A stretch of 9,596 nucleotides of DNA from a virus (IMGVR_UViG_2706794686_000013); one strand, 5' to 3'. Positions 1 to 9,596 are shown, numbered from the stretch's first letter. Program-made: numbers and translations. Notes: generated by a model not told the origin, from the sequence alone.

Positions 1-90
1 GAACAGGAGGGACAGCTGATAGAAACAGAAGCCACTGGAGCACCTCAAAAACACCATCATACACTAAATCAGTAAGTTGGCAGCATCACC
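1..90 (-). mobile_element. IS1 insertion sequence, terminal 90 bp (IRL end); element body continues beyond the window start
   Basis: Reverse complement of 1..90 reads ggtgatgctgccaacttactgatttagtgtatgatggtgtttttgaggtgctccagtggcttctgtttctatcagctgtccctcctgttc, which I recognise as the left end of IS1 (same end that abuts cat in Tn9). The InsA start (GTG gct tct gtt tct atc agc tgt ccc) lies at about 33..35 on the minus strand, reading out of the window. Match is from memory of IS1, not a database search. Confidence 0.9.
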
Positions 91-242
91 CCGCCACAGA
101 ACAATTATTGCTTTTGCCGTTGATGACAATAAAGTTTTTATCGCAGGCGTATACCACGGTGGGCAAATCTATGAAACCGATTTTTTATCCAGTGCACCGT
201 AAAACCCCCATCCTTCAGGGCGTGGCGGATATCAAACTTTGG

Positions 243-1325
243 TCATTTTCTCTGGCTGATCTTTACCGGATAACCATCCCGAAGATCAATTAAGTGCTCC
301 GGTTCAGAAGCAAACCATGCATAAGATCCCCACGCCAATTCTGGTATTGCCTTTTTAAAAGGCAGAGCACTTCTGTCCATAAATGCCGTAAGGAATGCAA
401 GATTTTTCTCGCTGAACCCAGCGTCAATAGCCAAATGAGTGAGAGTAACTTTTCGTTCCCTGTTTATAGGCCCATCTGTCGCAACTACTTCAGTGAAAAC
501 TACAAGCATGTCCGAACCCGTTCGGTCCTCTCCCAAATCAATCAAAATAATATCTGGAAGTGCTTTTGAGGCATCAATATTCAGCCCCAATGCTTTTGCC
601 AATACATCATCCTGAGCAACAACTTTATTCCCGGATTCAGACAACCAGAGCACAGTTGGATTCTTAAGAAAATTAGGAGCAAAAACTTCGATGACGGCCT
701 TAGCTATTGTACTTGACGGGCCCGGAGCTAAAGTTCTCTTCTCTCCATTTGGGAAAGTGACGACTACGGCATCAGCAGCAATCACTGCCCCTGATTTCAA
801 TAAACGCAACCTAGCAAGAGCGGCTTTGTTCAAATGATTTTCTTGCCAGGAACTTATTGCACTCAGCAGCGAATCTCCTTCAAGCCCGGCATCAAAGAGT
901 GCTGCAAAAGAGCGATTCAAACTGTAACGAGGACGAGAGGATGTGGTGGGTATACCTTTACGCTCAACAATTGCATTGCAAGGTATTAGGCCATTTTTTA
1001 TAGTTTCATCACGTATTGGCTCACGCGTATTTTCCGCATACCATGCATCAGCAGGCCTTATCTTTTGTTTAGAGAAAGTCATCTTTACCCAGCTTTCTCT
1101 GGACGCATCATCAGTAAGAGCAGCCTGCGAATCTCCCATACTTACAACCTGGCTGGGCCTTATCCATCGCCCCAGCCCCTCAACCGCACCAGCATAAAAC
1201 ATGACAAAAATTGTTTTTGCAGCTATTTCCCGAATTAAATATCCACGATTCTCAGTCCCTTCAGGGAAAATTAATTGTAATCTTTCCCGGATAACATTCA
1301 ATGGGGGAACAACAGGCAGATTCAT
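243..1325 (-). CDS. Putative restriction endonuclease partner of the adjacent methyltransferase (type II R-M R subunit, inferred from context)
   Basis: 360-aa ORF whose ATG overlaps the stop of the upstream methyltransferase by 4 nt (ATGA at 1322..1325), so translationally coupled. GGAG lies about 10 nt upstream of the ATG. No catalytic motif confidently identified by eye (possible hhhExK-like strand at NAIVERK); assignment is by genomic context and size only. Confidence 0.45.
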   Translation of the reverse strand: MNLPVVPPLNVIRERLQLIFPEGTENRGYLIREIAAKTIFVMFYAGAVEGLGRWIRPSQVVSMGDSQAALTDDASRESWVKMTFSKQKIRPADAWYAENTREPIRDETIKNGLIPCNAIVERKGIPTTSSRPRYSLNRSFAALFDAGLEGDSLLSAISSWQENHLNKAALARLRLLKSGAVIAADAVVVTFPNGEKRTLAPGPSSTIAKAVIEVFAPNFLKNPTVLWLSESGNKVVAQDDVLAKALGLNIDASKALPDIILIDLGEDRTGSDMLVVFTEVVATDGPINRERKVTLTHLAIDAGFSEKNLAFLTAFMDRSALPFKKAIPELAWGSYAWFASEPEHLIDLRDGYPVKISQRK

Positions 1326-3154
1326 GCAATCATCACTCCATAGAAACCAGCGATAGTTCTCTCAATAATCCGTCTGTGGACGCCAGCATCAATTAACGAT
1401 TGAATCTCCATCACCTGCTCCAGAGAAGGCAACGGGATTGAATTCAATTCATAGGCCGAAACAGCAACACTTCCGCTTATACACCTGAACGCCCGATCGA
1501 CAACATGCGAATTAAGTAGCATATCAATAACATCAGGGCGAACCGCAGAGAACAATCCGTTTGAATATACAATATTAATATGGTTTTCAACTACTACGCC
1601 ACCAGTTTCATCTATAAATCCCTGAGGTAAAATTGCCGCTAAAATCCTTCTGTCCTGTTCCTTCGATGTTGTCCGCTGAACAAGCACACATTCAGATTTT
1701 GTCACAAGGAAACCCTGTTGTGGGGTTATATCGATATAGGGAACATGATTTTTTCTGTCTGCACTAAAACGAAAACCAGCTGAAGTTATTGATTCCGCCC
1801 AGACTAATGGGTAGCTATTTTTTCCTTTCGTCGTACGCAACTGCGACTTAAATCGATTCCAGACTAACTGACCTGTAGAGACTGAGTATCCCAGATCAGC
1901 TAAACGCGTAGACATCTGTTTTAATACATTAAGAAAACAGGCATCATCTTTAACGCGTGGCAAAAGCCACGTTGCTCCACCTTTTTCTATATCAACATTA
2001 CCTATTTTCTCAATTTTTGCTTTGTTCAACCCCTTAGGGACAAGTGAGGATACCTGGGCCCGAACTTTATGTTCTCCCGCCTTGAATGCTGTCAACATTG
2101 TTTCCTGGAGAACATCGTCAAAGACCCCATCCCTGTCAGTGACGAAATCAAGGGCATACGGAGTAGTTTTTTCGGTCAAAAGGGTTCGCAGCGCGGTGAA
2201 ATACTGCCCACCAAGAAAAGAAGTTGGCGTAAGAAATGCAATAACTCCTGTTTTCTCTTTAACCATGCGAACAGCTAAGTCGGTGAACAATCCATATAGA
2301 TTTGCATGACCAAATAACGAACGAGAATATTTTTCTCTCGTTTTAATATCGAGAGTGACACGTCCGTAAGGCGGATTCCCTACCACAAGATCATAACCAG
2401 AAAATTTATCTTGCTGAAGCGCATCAGCAACAATAATTGTATCTTCAGGCAATCTACGTTTTACCTTTACACATAGTGGCATTAGTACAGATTCGAGCAA
2501 TACCAAACTCATCCAAGCCGCAAATGGATCGATCTCTATCCCCTTTAAACGACGACTGATTCTCCTCAACATCCATTCAGGGGAAGACCCCTTGTCTTTT
2601 TTTAACATTCGAATGGCTACTGGTGCCAAAAATGCACCGCCACCACACGCAGGATCAATAACCGATGCATGAGAAAAATCAACACCAGACTTTTCAGCCA
2701 GGTCCAAGAGACGCGCTACCAAAGGTGGGGGGGTATAGTAAGCCCCCAATTCCGAACGGTAAGCGGATGGCAGCATTACCGTATAAATTGACCCAATCAG
2801 ATATCCAGCGTCCTCCGCCGGAAATTGAGCAATAAGCTCACCTGTTCGTTCAGCGAGCTCGCGTGCATCACATGGAATGTCTTCTATGTAAACAGTGTGC
2901 GGTACTGCCCTCATTTTAATGCTGCTTTTTTGCTTTTTTGCAAGGGTATCCCAATATGCAGCTACGATGCTGAAGCAGTATGAGCGGGCATGCATCAACC
3001 TTGACTGCCCGGTTTTGTAATTGCCCGCATAACCTTTGGCCATGGCTTTACAAGTTTGATATCTTTCCAGATTAGAAAACTCATTATCTGTAAAAAAATC
3101 AAAATGTTGCACATTCATAATGTAAAATCCTAATGTATCAAACATGCGGGCCAT
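1322..3154 (-). CDS. N6-adenine-specific DNA methyltransferase, gamma-class motif order
   Basis: 610-aa ORF with AdoMet-binding motif I (IDPACGGGAFL) followed by catalytic motif IV (VVGNPPYG) and a motif X-like GAYYTPP upstream, then about 330 aa C-terminal to NPPY consistent with a target recognition domain. Start is ambiguous between ATG 3154, ATG 3145 and ATG about 3118 (the last has AGGA upstream). Confidence 0.85.
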   Translation of the reverse strand: MARMFDTLGFYIMNVQHFDFFTDNEFSNLERYQTCKAMAKGYAGNYKTGQSRLMHARSYCFSIVAAYWDTLAKKQKSSIKMRAVPHTVYIEDIPCDARELAERTGELIAQFPAEDAGYLIGSIYTVMLPSAYRSELGAYYTPPPLVARLLDLAEKSGVDFSHASVIDPACGGGAFLAPVAIRMLKKDKGSSPEWMLRRISRRLKGIEIDPFAAWMSLVLLESVLMPLCVKVKRRLPEDTIIVADALQQDKFSGYDLVVGNPPYGRVTLDIKTREKYSRSLFGHANLYGLFTDLAVRMVKEKTGVIAFLTPTSFLGGQYFTALRTLLTEKTTPYALDFVTDRDGVFDDVLQETMLTAFKAGEHKVRAQVSSLVPKGLNKAKIEKIGNVDIEKGGATWLLPRVKDDACFLNVLKQMSTRLADLGYSVSTGQLVWNRFKSQLRTTKGKNSYPLVWAESITSAGFRFSADRKNHVPYIDITPQQGFLVTKSECVLVQRTTSKEQDRRILAAILPQGFIDETGGVVVENHINIVYSNGLFSAVRPDVIDMLLNSHVVDRAFRCISGSVAVSAYELNSIPLPSLEQVMEIQSLIDAGVHRRIIERTIAGFYGVMIA

Positions 3155-3368
3155 AACATCTCATGGTGGCGCATAGCAAACTGGCCCGAAGAATATCACG
3201 CACCAAGTCGATCTCATAACCCGTTATGACAATAAATCTTTGTAGCTGAACTCACTTGGTGATTTGTCAATCATTCCTGGCCTCCAGTTCGTCCTGAATC
3301 TCTTTATCGAGTTCACCGTATTTGTTAGTCCTCATCACTCACGACTTGACTTCCAGAAATAACCTTGA

Positions 3369-3725
3369 TTATTCGGGGCTATATTTTGTCACCCTGCGTA
3401 TCCGCGCTTTCGCATTACGCTCAATCTGGATTAGCTTTTCTATATTTTTTCGCCTTTCCCGCTCCTCCTGGCGCAAGAGCCTTACATCATCTGCCAGTCT
3501 GGTTTCTCTTTTCGCCACAGAGAGCATCCAGTCAAATGGCTCCACAACTGCACCGCAAATTTTACAGCGGACCTGACGCTCTTTTTCGTCAACCCGGACA
3601 GAAGCGTGATGGCAATATGGTCTTTCCGATGGCTCATAAAGAAAATTAACCTGATTACGAGGGTTATCCTCTTTTACCGGAAATAAAACAATATTGCTTA
3701 ACTCATCTTCTGGTTTTATTTCCAT
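3369..3725 (-). CDS. Hypothetical prophage protein; possible Cys/His zinc-ribbon followed by a basic coiled-coil tail
   Basis: Track ORF 3369..3782 begins at a GTG; an in-frame ATG at 3723..3725 (MEIKPEDEL...) has a strong SD (aggagaggag) 5-8 nt upstream and is preferred. Contains CHH...x14...CKIC and an Arg/Glu-rich C-terminus (RLLRQEERERRKNIEKLIQIERNAKARIRR). Same strand and tight packing with neighbouring genes. Confidence 0.5.
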   Translation of the reverse strand: MEIKPEDELSNIVLFPVKEDNPRNQVNFLYEPSERPYCHHASVRVDEKERQVRCKICGAVVEPFDWMLSVAKRETRLADDVRLLRQEERERRKNIEKLIQIERNAKARIRRVTKYSPE

Positions 3726-3782
3726 GCTCCTCTCCTTTGATGCGAATGCCAGCGGTAATTGAAGCCTGATAGCTAATTTCAC

Positions 3783-4205
3783 TCACAGTACCGCCTCCTG
3801 AAAATCACCCTGATAGAAAGCCGGTACACGCTGCATAACTTCACTCTTCCGGCACTCGCGACAGATTATGTTCTGATGTCTGTCGTAGCGGCGTATTTCT
3901 CCGTCCGGTAATGACCAGATAAGGTCCGGATCAACCACAGATGGTTTCTTCAGCTTTGCCCTCGAGAGTTTTTTGCGGGCGTTTTGCCAGTCCTTACGAG
4001 CCTGTTCAGACGGGAATAACCCGTAGCCAGAGTTGTATACATCCCCACTGGCAACCAGCTCTCTGGCGAGAACGCTTATTAAATATCTTGTCGCCCCGGT
4101 TTTAGCTTCCAGTTGTCGTAACGTCTCGCGCCCACTCTGGCGTACGAGTTCAACAACCTGCCCCTTAATTTTTTCCCGCTCTTCCTGTGTAAATACTTTT
4201 GCCAT
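3783..4205 (-). CDS. Hypothetical prophage protein (CxxC-containing)
   Basis: Track ORF 3783..4220 starts at TTG; the in-frame ATG at 4203..4205 (MAKVFTQEERE...) with a GGGGG run about 6 nt upstream is preferred. 15-nt spacer from the upstream gene stop (4221..4223). Contains ICRECRK. No family recognised. Confidence 0.5.
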   Translation of the reverse strand: MAKVFTQEEREKIKGQVVELVRQSGRETLRQLEAKTGATRYLISVLARELVASGDVYNSGYGLFPSEQARKDWQNARKKLSRAKLKKPSVVDPDLIWSLPDGEIRRYDRHQNIICRECRKSEVMQRVPAFYQGDFQEAVL

Positions 4206-4220
4206 AAGCGCCCCCGGCAA

Positions 4221-4946
4221 TCACTTTTCCGACACAATACGACCGGAGGAATCGACAATCTGTCGAACAATATCCCGGTGCTTGTTCAGCTCCCGCAACG
4301 CGGCGCAGACACGCTCCCACTTCTGGACATGACTTTTCGCCCGACGCAGTTCGCGGTTTGCCATATGCAGCGATGGTAAAACCAGGTCATCCGCTTGCGT
4401 TTCGGTGAACGATGGCAACGACTGCACAATGTCCGCCACAGTTTCTGTTTTAATTTCTTCCTGTGTTGCAGCTTCCTGTACCGGTAACGCAACACCTGCT
4501 GGCTGAGGAAAGACTTTACCATCCGTTTCCGCTATGGATGCGGCTTTCGGCTCTGCCGGTAAATCAGCGCCCGGTATGCAGTACCGAAATTTACCGCCCT
4601 GATTCACGCGAATCAGACGCCCTTTGCTGATTGCCATGGCCAGCGATGAATTCGCCCGGCGGGAGGTAATCCCGAACATCAGTGCCAGCTCATCCGCCGT
4701 TTGTGGGCCATGTTGTTCAATCGCCTCAGTCAGCATTTGCGCTGTCACTTTCGGTACCGGTGACACTGGTTCACTTTCACCAGCCTGAATCAGCCACCAC
4801 ATCGAACCCTTGTTATCCGCTTCACCACGGCGCTTCAGTTTCCACAGTTCGTTGACCGCATCTTCACGGCTGATTCCAAGGCGGGACGCCACCACATGTG
4901 AAGAGGCTCTTTTCAGTGCTTTCAGTGCGTCAAATACAGTTTCCAT
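4221..4946 (-). CDS. Hypothetical prophage protein (acidic, Pro/Ala-rich central linker)
   Basis: Track ORF 4221..4964 starts at TTG; ATG at 4944..4946 ([12 protein letters not shown]...) with GGAGGA 8 nt upstream is preferred. Lies 21 nt downstream of the DnaC-like gene stop in the same operon. No family recognised with confidence. Confidence 0.55.
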
Positions 4947-4967
4947 TAAAACATCCTCCAACAAAAA

Positions 4968-5465
4968 TTACTTCACAACTCCCGGAAAGCTGACATTTGA
5001 ACGCCAGCTATCCCAGTTAAACGTCACCCACCGACAACCGTTCATGGTCATGCGGTCCATAATCCTCTCACCAAGAAGCGTGCTCATTGCGGCATGATTC
5101 AGGTTTGTTAACATCCCGACACTGCACAGTGATGCTGTCCGGCGATCAATTATCTGGTGCAATACCACCTGCTCGTTTTTCGTCTCCCGCTGAATGCCTA
5201 TTTCATCCAGGACCAGCAAATCAACCCCGCAAAGCTCCTGTAAAAATTTTTCACCGGATTTGCCGTTGTCGTAGCTGTCATGCAACACGCTCATGACATC
5301 AGACTCGGTGACGATAATCACGCTGCGCCCCTTCGCCATCAGCCGGTTACCCATCGCCGCTGCAAGGTGATTTTTCCCGGTGCCGGTTTTACCGCTGAAC
5401 ACAAAATTCGTGCACCCGGTCATCAGTTCGTCAGCTATGGATTTGGCCTGGCTCAGCGCGTATTT
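4968..5465 (-). CDS. DnaC-like helicase loader / phage replication protein P-analogue (AAA+ ATPase), 5' end lost in N-run
   Basis: Visible portion reads ...KYALSQAKSIADELMTGCTNFVFSGKTGTGKNHLAAAMGNRL..., with the Walker A SGKTGTGKNHLAAA that closely matches E. coli DnaC (SGKPGTGKNHLAAA), and a Walker B-like LLVLDEIG. The frame is open right up to the N-run at 5466, so the true start is inside the unresolved block. Confidence 0.85.
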   Translation of the reverse strand, partial: KYALSQAKSIADELMTGCTNFVFSGKTGTGKNHLAAAMGNRLMAKGRSVIIVTESDVMSVLHDSYDNGKSGEKFLQELCGVDLLVLDEIGIQRETKNEQVVLHQIIDRRTASLCSVGMLTNLNHAAMSTLLGERIMDRMTMNGCRWVTFNWDSWRSNVSFPGVVK

Positions 5466-5686
5466 NNNNNNNNNNNNNNNNNNNNNNNNNNNNNNNNNNN
5501 NNNNNNNNNNNNNNNNNNNNNNNNNNNNNNNNNNNNNNNNNNNNNNNNNNNNNNNNNNNNNNNNNNNNNNNNNNNNNNNNNNNNNNNNNNNNNNNNNNNN
5601 NNNNNNNNNNNNNNNNNNNNNNNNNNNNNNNNNNNNNNNNNNNNNNNNNNNNNNNNNNNNNNNNNNNNNNNNNNNNNNNNNNNNNN
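5466..5686. other. Unresolved/masked bases (221 N)
   Basis: Continuous run of n. Covers the 3' end of the O-like gene and the 5' end of the DnaC-like gene; ORF-track residues shown as X are not real. Confidence 1.
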
Positions 5687-6673
5687 TACCGGGAGCAACC
5701 AGGGGTTTTCAAAATTCCGGTCCGGCCCAAAAAACGTCGTCGCTCGCTGAACAAATTCCGTTCCCGCTTTCCCGGTCGCCGCCAGGTATCTCGCGTAACG
5801 CCTCACACCATCCAGCATGGTCTCTGGTGGCACCCCCTCGCGCAATCTGGCCTTCCAGGCACTGAATGCGGATTTCTTCGGGTTTGCCCCGGCACGCAAC
5901 GGGTATTCCCGCCAGACCTGTTCGAACACATCCGGATAATCCACTCGTCCCACAGGCTGCCCGGTGTTTTCCGGGGCTACCCGATCGGCTTCCCGCTGAA
6001 TGGCGGAATCGGCTTCAGGCTGCTGCAGTTGGAGTGATTGCTCCGGCCTTGCGGTCATCACCTGCTGCACAGCGCCCGAATCGGCTTTCAGCGCATACGC
6101 TGAATCGGCTTCCGGTGTCGAGCCTGCTGGCTGACCAGGATTGACGGTCTGAACATCCCCTGCCTGGTTCGTGGCGTTTTTTACGCCATGGACCATAGTG
6201 TTTTGATCTTCTTTATCTGTATCTTTATCTGTATCTGTCGTGACTCGTCGTGACATGTGCGTGACATTTCGTGACGCGCCGTGACAATCGCCATTTTGTT
6301 CCCGCTTTCTTTCCCTCTCTCGCTGCGCCCTCTTGCGCTCTGCAGGAGATTTTGCGGTTTGCGAAATATTGCCGTTGTCCTCTTTAAGCACCTGGCGTTT
6401 TTCCCATCCAGTGATTAAATCACCATCAAGTACCCGCCCCTGCATCGTCTGCAAAATTGAATCAATTACCTCTTCTGTCACGTCGAGCGCACTTGCCAAA
6501 TCTTCTGTCGTGACATCAATGTGACCTCGCGTGACATTTCGTGACGCGCTCACCAGGAGGTGGATATACACTGCCATCACTGTTGCAATTGGCTGCCCTG
6601 ACACCCTGGCAATTGTTCGCCACTTAGGGTCATTTGGCATGTCATGCCATAATCTGAGCCAGGCGTTAGCCAT
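5687..6673 (-). CDS. Phage replication initiation protein (lambda O-like role), 3' end lost in N-run
   Basis: ATG at 6671..6673 (MANAWLRLWHDMPNDPKWRTIARVSGQ...) with SD agaggtg upstream; the track start at 6679 is GTG. Sits immediately upstream of the DnaC-like gene and contains the iteron arrays within its coding sequence, as lambda O does. C-terminal region visible to 5687 (...FENPWLLPV) then runs into N. Confidence 0.6.
6211..6234 (+). repeat. Perfect 12-bp tandem duplication (ctttatctgtat x2) in an AT-rich stretch adjoining iteron array A
   Basis: 6211..6222 and 6223..6234 are identical; encodes the TDKDTDKD stretch of the initiator on the opposite strand. Confidence 0.8.
6240..6285. repeat. 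Iteron-like array A: five helically phased GTGAC(A) repeats
   Basis: GTGAC begins at 6240, 6250, 6261, 6271 and 6281 (spacing 10, 11, 10, 10 bp). Contains the 21-mer gcgtgacatttcgtgacgcgc at 6259..6279. Confidence 0.75.
6510..6549. repeat. Iteron-like array B: four helically phased GTGAC repeats plus one inverted copy upstream
   Basis: GTGAC begins at 6510, 6521, 6531 and 6541 (spacing 11, 10, 10 bp); inverted GTCAC at 6477..6481. The exact 21-mer gcgtgacatttcgtgacgcgc recurs at 6529..6549, 270 bp from the copy in array A. Confidence 0.75.
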
Positions 6674-6744
6674 ACTCACCTCTTCTGATACCGAATCTTT
6701 TTACTCACGAGTTGCCGGGAGCGATTCGATATGGCTATTGTCAG

Positions 6745-7170
6745 TCAATGTACTGCCACAGCATTTCCTGCCGGGCCACCACGGTTCATCTGATTGAAAC
6801 CGGCGATTGCCACTGCGACAAAATCATCAGCGTCTCTCACCAGTCGTTCATGCGTCTCCACCAGTTCCCGAAAATAAGCTGAACTGTGGCTGCGCATTCG
6901 AGCCACCAGCGGAGGTGGCATTGCCCTTTCGATCGCAGGTAACAACGCCTGAATTTTTTCAACAGCGTCAGGGGTGTCTTTATCCAGCCAACGGAAAATC
7001 TTTTGGGTGTTGAGATAAAGCGTGTTGTGCTTGCTGTCGTTATGCAGAACCGGAAACGTCATTCCCAGTTCGAAATAAACCCTGGTTATTTCAGCTGCCG
7101 GAACTTTTTCACCGTCCGGATGCGCCCAGGCTTTCATCGCCATGCGGATGTGTTCATGCTTGATTTTCAT
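6745..7170 (-). CDS. ydaT: YdaT-like protein (CII-like regulator position in a Rac-type immunity region)
   Basis: 141-aa ORF starting MKIKHEHIRMAMKAWAHPDGEK..., which I associate with the YdaT family of Rac-like prophages (recall, unverified). Sits between the cro-like gene and the replication initiator. Its ATG overlaps the cro-like stop (ATGA at 7167..7170); GGGGG SD upstream. Confidence 0.5.
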   Translation of the reverse strand: MKIKHEHIRMAMKAWAHPDGEKVPAAEITRVYFELGMTFPVLHNDSKHNTLYLNTQKIFRWLDKDTPDAVEKIQALLPAIERAMPPPLVARMRSHSSAYFRELVETHERLVRDADDFVAVAIAGFNQMNRGGPAGNAVAVH

Positions 7171-7420
7171 GAATCAACCCCCGCCGATGGTTGTGTGTTA
7201 GCCTGAAACTCAGCAGGCAAGCCGTCAGTTGGGTTGGGGTAGGTTTTACTGTCAATCTCATGTGGGGTCACCACCCATCCCGTTGCTTCACACCAACGTA
7301 ATATTTTTTCTCCTGTAAGTTTTGCACGCCCCGTTATAACGTGGCTGACCATCCCTTGGGATGCGCCAACAATCTCAGCAAATGAACTCTGGGTTATATG
7401 AAAATGATGCAAATATTCTC
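7167..7420 (-). CDS. Cro/YdaS-like HTH regulator, 5' end lost in N-run
   Basis: Visible C-terminal 83 aa: EYLHHFHITQSSFAEIVGASQGMVSHVITGRAKLTGEKILRWCEATGWVVTPHEIDSK... The helix-turn-helix (SSFAEIVGAS-QGMVSHV) is typical of Cro/XRE. No in-frame ATG before the N-run, so the start is in the masked block. First gene of the leftward operon. Confidence 0.6.
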
Positions 7421-7717
7421 NNNNNNNNNNNNNNNNNNNNNNNNNNNNNNNNNNNNNNNNNNNNNNNNNNNNNNNNNNNNNNNNNNNNNNNNNNNNNNNN
7501 NNNNNNNNNNNNNNNNNNNNNNNNNNNNNNNNNNNNNNNNNNNNNNNNNNNNNNNNNNNNNNNNNNNNNNNNNNNNNNNNNNNNNNNNNNNNNNNNNNNN
7601 NNNNNNNNNNNNNNNNNNNNNNNNNNNNNNNNNNNNNNNNNNNNNNNNNNNNNNNNNNNNNNNNNNNNNNNNNNNNNNNNNNNNNNNNNNNNNNNNNNNN
7701 NNNNNNNNNNNNNNNNN
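7421..7717. other. Unresolved/masked bases (297 N)
   Basis: Continuous run of n covering the 5' ends of both divergent regulator genes and the whole intergenic operator/promoter region between them. Confidence 1.
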
Positions 7718-8090
7718 ACAAGGGGCGGTAAGTCACTACCTAAATGGTCAAACCCCACTAAACCTTGAGGCTGTTCTAAAGTTTGCTGGCTTACTGAAAG
7801 TTCCCCCTGAGTCAATCAGGCCAGACATGGTAGATTTGCTGCAAATTGCAAGGATGTATTGTCGAGAACCACAGCAAGATAACATAGTCGCATTACCAGC
7901 AGACACAGAACAAACAGAGGATGAACTACCGTTTGCCGTAGAGCCGATGGAACGAGATTTAATCCATACGTTCAGAGCTTTTCCGAAAGAAGATCAAGAA
8001 CACATGCTTCAGGAGATGAAAGATAAAAAAGAATCAATGGATCGTACGGTTGCGCGGTGGTTAGCTGCACAAAAAGGCCGTCGCGCCTAA
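7718..8090 (+). CDS. HTH repressor-like regulator (CI/RacR-position; possible PaaR-type regulator of the downstream toxin-antitoxin pair), 5' end lost in N-run
   Basis: Visible 123 aa begin mid-HTH (QGAVSHYLNGQTPLNLEAVLKFAGLLKVPPE...), a recognition-helix signature of XRE-family repressors. Divergent to the cro-like gene. Stop at 8088..8090, only 19 nt before the antitoxin start. No S24 peptidase-like C-terminal domain seen. Confidence 0.6.
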
Positions 8091-8109
8091 ATCAGAGGAG
8101 ATATGTAAA

Positions 8110-8304
8110 ATGAGTACAGTCCTTTCCCCAATGGTTTCAGAATTTGAGACAGTTGAGCAAGAAAATAGTTACAACGAATGGCTGCGGGCCAAAGTAGCAG
8201 CAAGCCTCGCGGATCCCCGCCCGGCGATTCCGCATGATGAGGTAATGGCGGAAATGGAACAAATTATTGCCCAAATTGCTGCTGCAACTCACAGAGGTGA
8301 ATAA
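8110..8304 (+). CDS. paaA: Type II antitoxin, ParE-associated (PaaA-like)
   Basis: 64-aa ORF with GAGGAG SD 9 nt upstream. Its stop overlaps the toxin ATG (TAATG at 8302..8306), the classic antitoxin-toxin arrangement. Sequence (SPMVSEFETVEQENSYNEWLRAKVAASLADPRPAIPHDEV) resembles my recollection of the PaaA2 antitoxin of E. coli O157 prophages (unverified). Confidence 0.65.
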   Translation: MSTVLSPMVSEFETVEQENSYNEWLRAKVAASLADPRPAIPHDEVMAEMEQIIAQIAAATHRGE

Positions 8305-8594
8305 TGTTACCCGTTTTATGGCTACCATCTGCTCGTGATGATTTGCGCCAGATCGTAGCCTACATAGCTAAAGAAAATCCCGCGGCAGCACGCAGAATGA
8401 AAATTCGAATTGAAACATCCGTTTTGCCGCTCACAGAGCATCCTTACCTGTATCCTCCAAGCGAGCGAGTTCTTGGTCTTCGTGAAATTGTAACTCATCC
8501 TAACTACATCATCCTTTACCGAGTAACAGCATCAAGCATAGAAGTAGTAAATATTGTGCATTCTCGAAGACAGTATCCAGGCAAAAACAGTTAA
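8304..8594 (+). CDS. parE: ParE/RelE-family toxin
   Basis: 96-aa ORF (MLPVLWLPSARDDLRQIVAYIAKENPAAARRMKIRIE...LGLREIVTHPNYIILYRVTASSIEVVNIVHSRRQYP) showing the conserved ParE/RelE pattern: W.P.A..DL..I..YI near the N-terminus and GLRE...nYiIlYRV...ieVvnIvH near the C-terminus. Confidence 0.85.
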   Translation: MLPVLWLPSARDDLRQIVAYIAKENPAAARRMKIRIETSVLPLTEHPYLYPPSERVLGLREIVTHPNYIILYRVTASSIEVVNIVHSRRQYPGKNS

Positions 8595-8610
8595 TTATTC
8601 CCGCCGACAG

Positions 8611-8634
8611 AACCACCTTAGGGTGGTTTTTTCT
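8611..8634 (+). terminator. Rho-independent terminator downstream of the toxin gene
   Basis: Stem aaccacc (8611..8617), loop ttag, stem ggtggtt (8622..8628), followed by a T-run (ttttttctt), 17 nt after the parE stop. Confidence 0.55.
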
Positions 8635-8647
8635 TGCCCCAACAAAA

Positions 8648-8695
8648 AACAATAGCGATGCTATTTACATCAAAAAAAAATAATGATGCTATTGT
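8648..8695. promoter_or_regulatory. Palindromic / direct-repeat element flanking an A9 tract (candidate operator-promoter for the downstream small genes)
   Basis: aacaatagc (8648..8656) is the exact reverse complement of gctattgtt (8687..8695); gatgctatt occurs twice in direct orientation either side of aaaaaaaaa; tttaca is -35-like. No convincing -10 hexamer at canonical spacing. Confidence 0.3.
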
Positions 8696-8874
8696 TTCAG
8701 GCGTCAACCCACCCCGCCCCACAGAATGCAGGGCAATACTTCGAGTTACCAGACAGTGGTCAGGGGTTAAGTAGCCAGCCCGAGGCGTAAGAACATGACG
8801 GCAGGGTTCAATCTTTAACTATGCAGCAGGTTTTTTGTTCCGCCACCCCGGCGTTAAGGGGAAATGAGGTCAGC

Positions 8875-9027
8875 ATGGATACTATCGATCTTGGCAACAA
8901 CGAATCTCTGGTGTGCGGCGTGTTCCCTAACCAGGATGGAACGTTTACCGCCATGACGTATACCAAAAGCAAAACGTTTAAAACCGAATCTGGCGCGCGT
9001 TGCTGGTTAGCCAGAAACACTGACTGA
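8875..9027 (+). CDS. Small hypothetical prophage protein (50 aa)
   Basis: ATG at 8875 with GAGG 5 nt upstream (MDTIDLGNNESLVCGVFPNQDGTFTAMTYTKSKTFKTESGARCWLARNTD). The track ORF starts earlier (8821) but that ATG lacks an SD. Reminiscent of tiny early-left proteins of Rac-like prophages; identity unverified. Confidence 0.45.
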   Translation: MDTIDLGNNESLVCGVFPNQDGTFTAMTYTKSKTFKTESGARCWLARNTD

Positions 9028-9038
9028 TGAGGCTGACG

Positions 9039-9404
9039 ATGGAATTTAAAGATTTACCGTCTGATGTACAGAAAACAGCAGCTCATACATTGCATTCTGT
9101 GCTGCGAGAAATCGGGAAAGATATTGCAAGCGAGCCAGCAAAAGATCTGGCCCGGAAAATCAAGACCGCTTTCGTTGAGCTTTATAATGTTGGCACTGAC
9201 TCTGAAACTGTCGAGACCAAGACCGTAAGTTCACCAATATTCTCACTTGAGCCAAGCGTATTATCAGGTGAAATATGCACCGAGATTTCCAGCGAACTGC
9301 TTCCGGTAATACGAGAAGCAATTCGCCGTCGCGGTTTGGATGGAAGTTATGATCATGACGTTCTGCAAGTTCTCAGGACAATGGTGACTTCACTGGGGAT
9401 TTGA
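9039..9404 (+). CDS. Hypothetical protein (121 aa)
   Basis: ATG at 9039 (MEFKDLPSDVQKTAAHTL...) with GAGG 6 nt upstream. An alternative ATG at 9027 overlaps the previous stop (TGATGA), which would indicate coupling. No family recognised. Confidence 0.5.
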   Translation: MEFKDLPSDVQKTAAHTLHSVLREIGKDIASEPAKDLARKIKTAFVELYNVGTDSETVETKTVSSPIFSLEPSVLSGEICTEISSELLPVIREAIRRRGLDGSYDHDVLQVLRTMVTSLGI

Positions 9405-9536
9405 TCCCTGCGTCCTCTAAGCTTTTGATATAGCGGTCCTCCAAGAAGCGGTAAATTTTGTCGAAATCATCTTTTCCCTCTGGTTTATTCAGAGGATTAC
9501 AGGACCCGTAAGTAGCGGCATACATTTCAACCGTTT

Positions 9537-9596
9537 GGTAATGACTCCAACTTATTGATAGTGTTTTATGTTCAGATAATGCCCGATGACTTTGTC
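9537..9596 (-). mobile_element. IS1 insertion sequence, terminal 60 bp (IRR end); element body continues beyond the window end
   Basis: 9537..9596 reads ggtaatgactccaacttattgatagtgttttatgttcagataatgcccgatgactttgtc, the reverse complement of the IS1 right end (...gacaaagtcatcgggcattatctgaacataaaacactatcaataagttggagtcattacc). Same orientation as the copy at 1..90. Confidence 0.9.
9552..9596 (-). CDS. insB: IS1 transposase InsB, C-terminal end (partial; rest beyond window)
   Basis: Minus-strand translation gives ...DKVIGHYLNIKHYQ followed by stop (TAA at 9552..9554), matching the known InsB C-terminus. Confidence 0.8.
   Translation of the reverse strand, partial: DKVIGHYLNIKHYQ

Follow-up and report, generated by a model that had tools for sequence, protein, structure and literature searches.

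The question raised by this locus is whether a block of DNA that is enclosed by two insertion sequences has moved as a unit, or whether the insertion sequences arrived at its two ends separately. The stretch analysed here (IMGVR_UViG_2706794686_000013; 9,596 nucleotides, and as a whole called the window) begins and ends within copies of the insertion sequence IS1, and a preliminary description of it had offered two wordings for the 9.4 kb in between: a Tn9-like composite transposon, or an IS1-trapped prophage remnant. The second wording was the correct one. With a probability of roughly 0.88 the window carries the 9.4-kb middle part of a defective lambdoid prophage at the Qin position, and the two IS1 copies, placed independently of each other, record separate events and not the transposition of a unit.

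The two ends of the window are made up of the following features.

1-90, minus strand: left IS1, first 90 nt only; left inverted repeat (IRL) at 68-90, first 35 nt of insA at 1-35, remainder beyond the left edge of the window
91-202, plus strand: 3' remnant of a ParE/RelE-family toxin gene, 36 codons and a stop, cut by the left IS1
9528-9536: target site CAACCGTTT of the right IS1, repeated directly past the IS1 in 10 of 18 closed genomes as a 9-bp target-site duplication
9537-9596, minus strand: right IS1, last 60 nt only; right inverted repeat (IRR) at 9537-9559, last 45 nt of insB at 9552-9596, remainder beyond the right edge

The reverse complement of 1-90 (GGTGATGCTGCCAACTTACTGAT...) is identical to nucleotides 1-90 of IS1, with no mismatch to IS1A of Escherichia coli K-12 or to the IS1 of Shigella sonnei, and that of 9537-9596 is identical to the last 60 nucleotides of K-12 IS1A; on sequence comparison such terminal matches cannot be due to chance. 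IRL and IRR are imperfect 23-bp terminal inverted repeats with 18 of 23 positions in common. Both partial copies read on the minus strand and are therefore direct repeats, and their inner ends face the 9.4-kb block, so the coordinates and the orientation given for them in the preliminary description were right.

The window is evidently one complete short-read scaffold of an S. sonnei chromosome, bounded by the collapsed IS1 repeat. It matches 18 distinct closed chromosomes (4.8-5.0 Mb) at 99.9-100% identity, two of which are documented as S. sonnei, namely CP010829 (strain FORC_011, PMC5447701; locus L018) and CP060117 (strain UKMCC1015, PMC11296047; locus L017). These loci were found by exact-protein look-ups with the restriction enzyme, the orf125 protein and the DUF1627 protein encoded in the window. 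In all 18 genomes a full IS1 of about 768 bp, with insA and insB' called, stands at both junctions on the same strand; the two full-length direct copies that had been anticipated are thus present, and they are neither fragments nor inverted. In FORC_011 they occupy positions 234-1001 (left) and 10511-11278 (right) of the locus, are exactly 768 bp each and mutually identical, and equivalent copies occur in the other closed genomes, with single-base length differences in a few long-read assemblies. The S. sonnei copies differ from K-12 IS1A at three positions (99.6% identity). Furthermore, the insA and insB' frames of the closed-genome S. sonnei copy are open and carry the A6C programmed -1 frameshift site (AAAAAAC) at nt 307, and the IS1 products called in the closed genomes match the Pfam families InsA, HTH_Tnp_IS1 and DDE_Tnp_IS1.

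Part of the apparent bracketing simply marks the places where the assembler stopped. The window ends in IS1 because a repeat that is present about 165 times per genome cannot be crossed by the assembler. An independent draft scaffold, CWVT01000151.1 (L037; 9,828 bp, with N runs of its own), has its first base at the same place in IS1 as the window and reaches 103 bp into the right-hand copy. Breaks very near these junctions are also seen in other independent drafts (L012, L019, L020, L021 and L022), where contigs stop five bases or less away, and in three look-ups the genes were found on contigs of 5-10 kb in most assemblies (2,158 of 4,192, 633 of 792 and 3,988 of 5,498 blocks).

Judged by its flanks, the right IS1 entered by simple insertion into a prophage that extends further to the right: it has its own target-site duplication, an empty site exists and the sequence beyond is colinear. 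The uninterrupted, single-copy CAACCGTTT site is found in two related loci (L019 and L015), and in UKMCC1015 the sequence past the right IS1 continues exactly as in the empty sites, through the dicF-like region, rha, dicB, ydfD and a truncated exo. A separate IS1 has thus transposed into the early-left region downstream of orf125 and duplicated CAACCGTTT, as the junctions show directly.

The further history of the right side can be followed among the closed genomes. In UKMCC1015 the first copy is followed after 1,244 bp by a second IS1, inserted in the 3' end of rha and with a duplication of its own (TTTCCGGTT). In two of the 18 genomes a single IS1 links CAACCGTTT to the outer flank of this second copy, with 2,012 bp (one IS1 plus the 1,244 bp) missing, and this loss, judged from its length and endpoints, is the exact product of recombination between two direct IS1 copies. 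In six genomes a single IS1 links CAACCGTTT to ynfF at K-12 position 1661901, and in some of the genomes that carry the CAACCGTTT duplication it is the second IS1 that is joined to ynfF at the same position (the sequence is shown for CP045524). The right junction therefore occurs in three types across the closed strains (10, 2 and 6 of 18). Because the ynfF junction is identical in the two-IS1 and the single-IS1 states, the simplest history is that the deletion between the first and the second IS1 happened at least twice. In this sequence of events further direct IS1 copies on the right would have recombined with the loss of 2,012 bp, and some lineages would have lost everything up to the middle of ynfF. 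The claim that direct IS1 repeats delete DNA by recombination is therefore borne out at this locus, but the deletions seen are those of the neighbouring pair immediately to the right, and not of the bracketing pair.

Still further to the right, UKMCC1015 has a truncated exo followed by an IS3-family element and then by the middle of ynfE (L017 14635-16189; K-12 1659600). The genes intQ, rspAB, ynfA-D and speG are absent from this locus, which is consistent with the loss of speG known in Shigella (PMC7373316). A site shared with the K-12 IS2E in ydfE, where the K-12 match stops at 1650844, was considered for this element and rejected, as the element at 14635-16189 is unmatched to the K-12 region; the stop at 1650844 reflects K-12's own interrupted ydfE.

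At the left end the remnant at 91-202 translates to RHRTIIAFAVDDNKVFIAGVYHGGQIYETDFLSSAP*, which is the C-terminus of the 103-aa ParE of an intact prophage (L001, 5801-6112). In that prophage parD stands upstream of parE, and the parD-parE pair adjoins the same restriction-modification (R-M) cassette in the intact relatives. The flanks of the left IS1 (outer TTTTGTTATATG, inner CCGCCACAG) are invariant in all 18 genomes and contain no duplication. The inner flank resumes parE at codon 68. The outer flank corresponds to the DNA between ydfI and ydfJ in K-12 and can be followed as far as position 1630961, where 48 bp separate it from the start of ydfI. Since this copy has no 9-bp duplication and joins a truncated parE to the ydfI-ydfJ intergenic region, it is, as far as its flanks can tell, a deletion or recombination junction. 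Beyond it parD, the nin, Q, lysis and structural genes, the left attachment site and ydfJ are absent. An IS1 in the prophage parE would have become the endpoint of a deletion, either by IS1-mediated adjacent deletion or by recombination between two IS1 copies, and this deletion would have taken all of these genes and the attachment site, leaving the IS1 at its present distance from ydfI.

Between the left IS1 and the stop codon of the restriction gene there are 152 bp (91-242), as had been claimed; they hold the 3' end of the toxin gene, which was overlooked at that time, as were two N runs in the window. A scan of the GTDB species-representative genomes returned no junction of an IS1 end with the truncated parE, as is expected if S. 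sonnei has no representative there. Two draft contigs, L012 and L019, begin at window positions 95 and 96, within 5 bp of the IS1/parE junction, and are without the right IS1; the immunity region of L012 differs. This combination suggests that the left junction is the older of the two and is common to variant prophages.

The block between the two junctions may be read as a truncated parE, a type II R-M system, a replication module, a cro/repressor region, a PaaR-PaaA-ParE module, a ydfA-like gene and orf125. According to Pfam matches and the annotation of relatives, the lambdoid early modules stand in canonical order (O-like/DnaC-like replication genes, divergent cro and repressor, early-left genes of the ydfA/dicB type), and megablast matches are to lambdoid phages and Rac/Qin-type prophages. 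The remnant sits between ydfI and ynfE/ynfF, which is the Qin interval of K-12, its modules are ordered in the Qin orientation, and its borders lie 1.3 kb (left) and 6.9 kb (right) from the K-12 Qin attachment sites. On the right it ends with a truncated exo beside an IS3-family element, or with IS1 beside ynfF. Integrase and attachment sites are absent from all S. sonnei copies. The most parsimonious reading of this arrangement, and a very probable one, is the decay in situ of a prophage at the Qin site.

It was first assumed that the closest intact relatives would also be found at the Qin site; this had to be rejected, as they were found at potB/potC, and for this reason we only infer that the remnant occupies its native site. 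The fragment might instead have been moved to the ydfI-ynfE interval by an IS-mediated inversion or translocation, for example from a potB/potC prophage. This is unlikely, even if potB and potC do flank the nearest intact prophages that share both the R-M cassette and parDE, and the left junction without a duplication is what any IS1 x IS1 exchange would give; IS-mediated rearrangements are also abundant in Shigella genomes, as described in PMC8072062 and PMC7373316. However, the distances of the borders from the Qin attachment sites and the Qin orientation speak against it, and local deletions are a more parsimonious explanation than two independent long-range events that both ended there in the right orientation. 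Lambdoid phages are mosaic, moreover, and commonly pair identical early regions with different integrases, which weakens the argument from the potB/potC relatives.

That the block is a Tn9-like IS1 composite transposon, inserted as a unit with the R-M and toxin-antitoxin genes as its passengers, is very improbable. The structure does have what such an element requires: in the closed genomes the two IS1 copies are directly oriented, their outer ends are intact and their transposase frames are open, which is all the machinery needed, and the same geometry is seen in Tn9 and in the IS1B-argF-IS1C segment of K-12. The outer 9-mers, which the preliminary description had named as the check on its own proposal, are nevertheless different: the left one is TGTTATATG, the right one is CAACCGTTT, TTTCCGGTT or CGACCCGTG depending on the strain, and none of these equals the left one. 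There is thus no duplication around the unit, and it follows that the unit was not transposed as a whole. Since the same prophage runs on colinearly past the right IS1, which has a duplication and an empty site of its own, the 9.4 kb is no discrete passenger. Additionally, the inner flank on the left is a truncated gene, the other half of which is absent. Nor was the unit seen in any other context: no record covers at least 80% of the window among 5,426 E. coli genomes, 72,556 plasmids and 50,697 phages, and every context returned for three window proteins was the same locus or an intact prophage. The transposition frequency of IS1-flanked transposons falls as their length grows, and a 9.4-kb passenger would be a poor substrate. 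The block could in principle be excised, amplified or, on rare occasions, transposed as a composite, for which it is formally competent, but it bears no sign of past movement.

It should be emphasized that the geometry alone is uninformative, given the density of IS1 and the similar brackets nearby and in K-12. The chromosome of S. sonnei 53G carries 165 copies of IS1 in 4.99 Mb (Hawkey et al. 2020, S1 Table, PMC7373316), which by our own arithmetic gives a mean spacing of about 30 kb; with random placement about 27% of the gaps, or about 44, would be 9.5 kb or shorter, and about half of these would be direct, so that chance alone would lead one to expect such an arrangement. Two direct IS1 copies likewise bracket the adjoining segment of ordinary housekeeping genes (8.2 kb, ydfI to dgcZ/mgtT). 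The outer one of these (L003 20226-20994) is a third IS1 in the same orientation, which adjoins mgtT at a distance of 8.2 kb from the left side of the block; it is without a target duplication and marks another rearrangement or deletion junction.

It is scarcely credible that the matches to IS1 at the two termini are mere isolated pieces, or products of misassembly with repeat ends misattached: 90 and 60 bp of IS1 in a gapped draft scaffold could raise this suspicion, as misjoins occur at contig ends in repeats, but complete IS1 copies stand at exactly both junctions in all 18 closed chromosomes, which come from several sequencing technologies, and the independent drafts named above (L012, L019, L020, L021, L022 and L037) have their breaks only a few bases away from them.

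Several points weigh against our reading of a Qin-site remnant with two independently placed IS1 copies. Those intact prophages that are closest and share the R-M cassette have their integration site between potB and potC, and the case for decay in situ at the Qin site consists solely of position and orientation, the integrase and both attachment sites having been lost. At the left and the ynfF junctions, adjacent deletion (that is, intramolecular transposition) and recombination with an IS1 that was subsequently lost give the same product. The full lengths of the IS1 copies and the type of right junction in the source strain are taken from the near-identical closed genomes, as the window itself holds 90 and 60 bp of IS1. 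All loci were retrieved via proteins encoded in the block, so that strains without it would escape this sampling. Finally, the structure keeps its formal competence for composite transposition.

Between the two ends, the window holds the following genes and gaps.

243-1325, minus strand: type II restriction endonuclease, BsuBI/PstI family, 360 aa; Pfam PF06616 (9e-45) and PF17728 (1e-30)
1322-3154, minus strand: N6-adenine DNA methyltransferase, 610 aa, partner of the endonuclease; Pfam PF07669 and PF02384
3369-3725, minus strand: hypothetical protein, 118 aa; longest open reading frame (ORF) to 3782; called in closed genomes; sub-threshold zinc-ribbon match only
3783-4205, minus strand: DUF977 prophage protein; PF06163, 3e-30
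4221-4946, minus strand: DUF1627 prophage protein (YdaW-like); PF07789, 4e-93
4968-5465, minus strand: 3' two-thirds of a DnaC-like replication ATPase gene, 5' end in the N run; 248 aa with PF01695/PF00308 in closed genomes
5466-5686: run of 221 N, scaffold gap; 333 bp at the same place in closed genomes
5687-6673, minus strand: phage replisome organizer (O-like), 3' end in the N run; 354 aa in closed genomes; from the annotation of relatives
6745-7170, minus strand: YdaT-family protein; PF06254
7167-7420, minus strand: Cro-like regulator, 87 aa, first codons in the N run; called in closed genomes; Cro/CI family in relatives
7421-7717: run of 297 N, scaffold gap; in closed genomes 249 bp, which span the divergent-promoter/operator region and the beginning of the repressor gene
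7718-8090, plus strand: HTH_3 repressor gene, 3' part only; product of 166 aa in closed genomes, with PF01381; first gene of a PaaR-PaaA-ParE-type module
8110-8304, plus strand: PaaA2-type antitoxin; PF21217, 3e-23
8304-8594, plus strand: ParE-family toxin, intact; PF05016, 2e-17
8875-9027, plus strand: DUF1391 (YdfA-like) small early-left gene; PF07151; 91.8% nucleotide identity to ydfA of K-12 Qin
9027-9404, plus strand: orf125, 125-aa protein; present in intact relatives

The N runs (221 and 297) differ in length from the real sequences in the closed genomes (333 and 249 bp), and are therefore scaffold gaps. Two ORFs, 5453-6679 (408 aa) and 7398-8090 (230 aa), cross these gaps and are artificial; in the closed genomes the genes actually present at these places encode the 248-aa DnaC-like protein, the 354-aa replisome organizer, the 87-aa Cro-like protein and the 166-aa HTH repressor. 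Within the replisome-organizer gene, CGTGAC repeats (family D2) are clustered at 6247-6545, and by analogy with lambda O these clusters look like origin iterons. In the draft L021 a 1.7-kb insertion, which encodes a Y2 (IS91-family) transposase, interrupts ydaT at window position 6880-6884 approximately. The three-gene module at 7718-8594 resembles PaaR2-PaaA2-ParE2 of E. coli O157 prophages; if the truncated parE at 91-202 is counted as well, the fragment retains parts of two ParE systems in addition to an R-M system. The orf125 protein had no Pfam match, and no RNA family was found in the window with Rfam. In the draft L020 the ydfA-like gene is joined, at window position 8798, to tail genes of a Mu-like phage, which suggests either the insertion of a Mu-like prophage into the remnant or a rearrangement.

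The restriction and methyltransferase genes overlap by 4 bp. Their GC content is 0.43-0.44 as against 0.51-0.55 for the replication module, and on account of this low value the cassette can be regarded as moron-like cargo. The window contains two CTGCAG sites (6023 and 6340), which is about the expected number. In UKMCC1015 a 1,847-bp deletion that matches window positions 2734-4580 removes the first 140 or so codons of the methyltransferase gene together with its upstream region, the hypothetical gene, the DUF977 gene and part of the DUF1627 gene, and leaves the restriction gene intact. A damaged methyltransferase beside an intact restriction gene would be odd for a live R-M system, and this suggests that the restriction enzyme is inactive or silent in that strain.

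In view of its complete type II R-M system and its three-gene ParE module, the block may be thought of as an active, mobile or amplifiable 9.4-kb addiction island, an idea to which we give little credence. If it were true, post-segregational killing would penalise the loss of the block by recombination between the two IS1 copies, and addiction would explain why none of the genomes seen has lost the insert of the bracketing pair while the neighbouring pairs recombined repeatedly, in a sample that is biased by the use of block genes as queries. Whether R-M and toxin-antitoxin modules help such a fragment to persist is a mildly interesting question.

The reading as a Qin-site remnant with independently placed IS1 copies explains why a separate scaffold of 9.4-9.8 kb is found in thousands of S. 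sonnei draft assemblies, and it implies that in IS-rich genomes the presence of IS ends at both contig termini is no ground for calling a composite transposon. The locus is a clean, stepwise record of IS1 erosion, in which a simple insertion was followed by IS1 x IS1 deletion and this in turn by the disappearance of rha, dicB and part of the ynfEF selenate-reductase genes, and its three types of right junction could serve as lineage markers.

Among known systems, one close comparison is with Qin itself. The S. sonnei remnant shares with the K-12 prophage the interval (ydfI/ydfJ to ynfE/ynfF) and the orientation, the order of its parts (Q/nin side, cro-like gene, repressor, ydfA, dicF, dicB, ydfD, exo), and ydfA and dicB-ydfE segments that are 92% identical. 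It differs in its immunity and replication modules and in its cargo, which is R-M and PaaR-PaaA-ParE here and relBE, hokD and csp genes in Qin; it has also been deprived of the late genes, the integrase and both attachment sites, through deletions associated with insertion sequences.

The IS1B-argF-IS1C segment of K-12, called Tn2901 in the older literature, is nearly identical to the S. sonnei block in size, geometry and setting: two 768-bp IS1 copies on the same strand (279163-279930 and 290634-291401) enclose about 10.7 kb within the cryptic prophage CP4-6. Its passengers are argF and xylonate genes, whereas those of the present block are R-M, replication and toxin-antitoxin genes. In Tn9 (IS1-cat-IS1; about 2.6 kb) a direct IS1 pair likewise flanks a passenger, with IRR and IRL as outer ends and at least one copy encoding InsAB'. 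Tn9, however, is found in many contexts with a 9-bp target duplication, while the S. sonnei block is 9.4 kb of resident prophage DNA with no duplication around the unit and a single context found. A parallel to the process is the expansion of insertion sequences in Shigella, where IS1 is the most expanded element, copies disrupt genes and drive deletions between homologous copies, and sites vary among strains (PMC7373316). The three right-junction types are one instance of this, with no difference in kind, and there is nothing out of the ordinary in the locus as a whole: it illustrates the expansion of IS1 and the IS-mediated erosion reported there for Shigella, and no new mechanism is involved.

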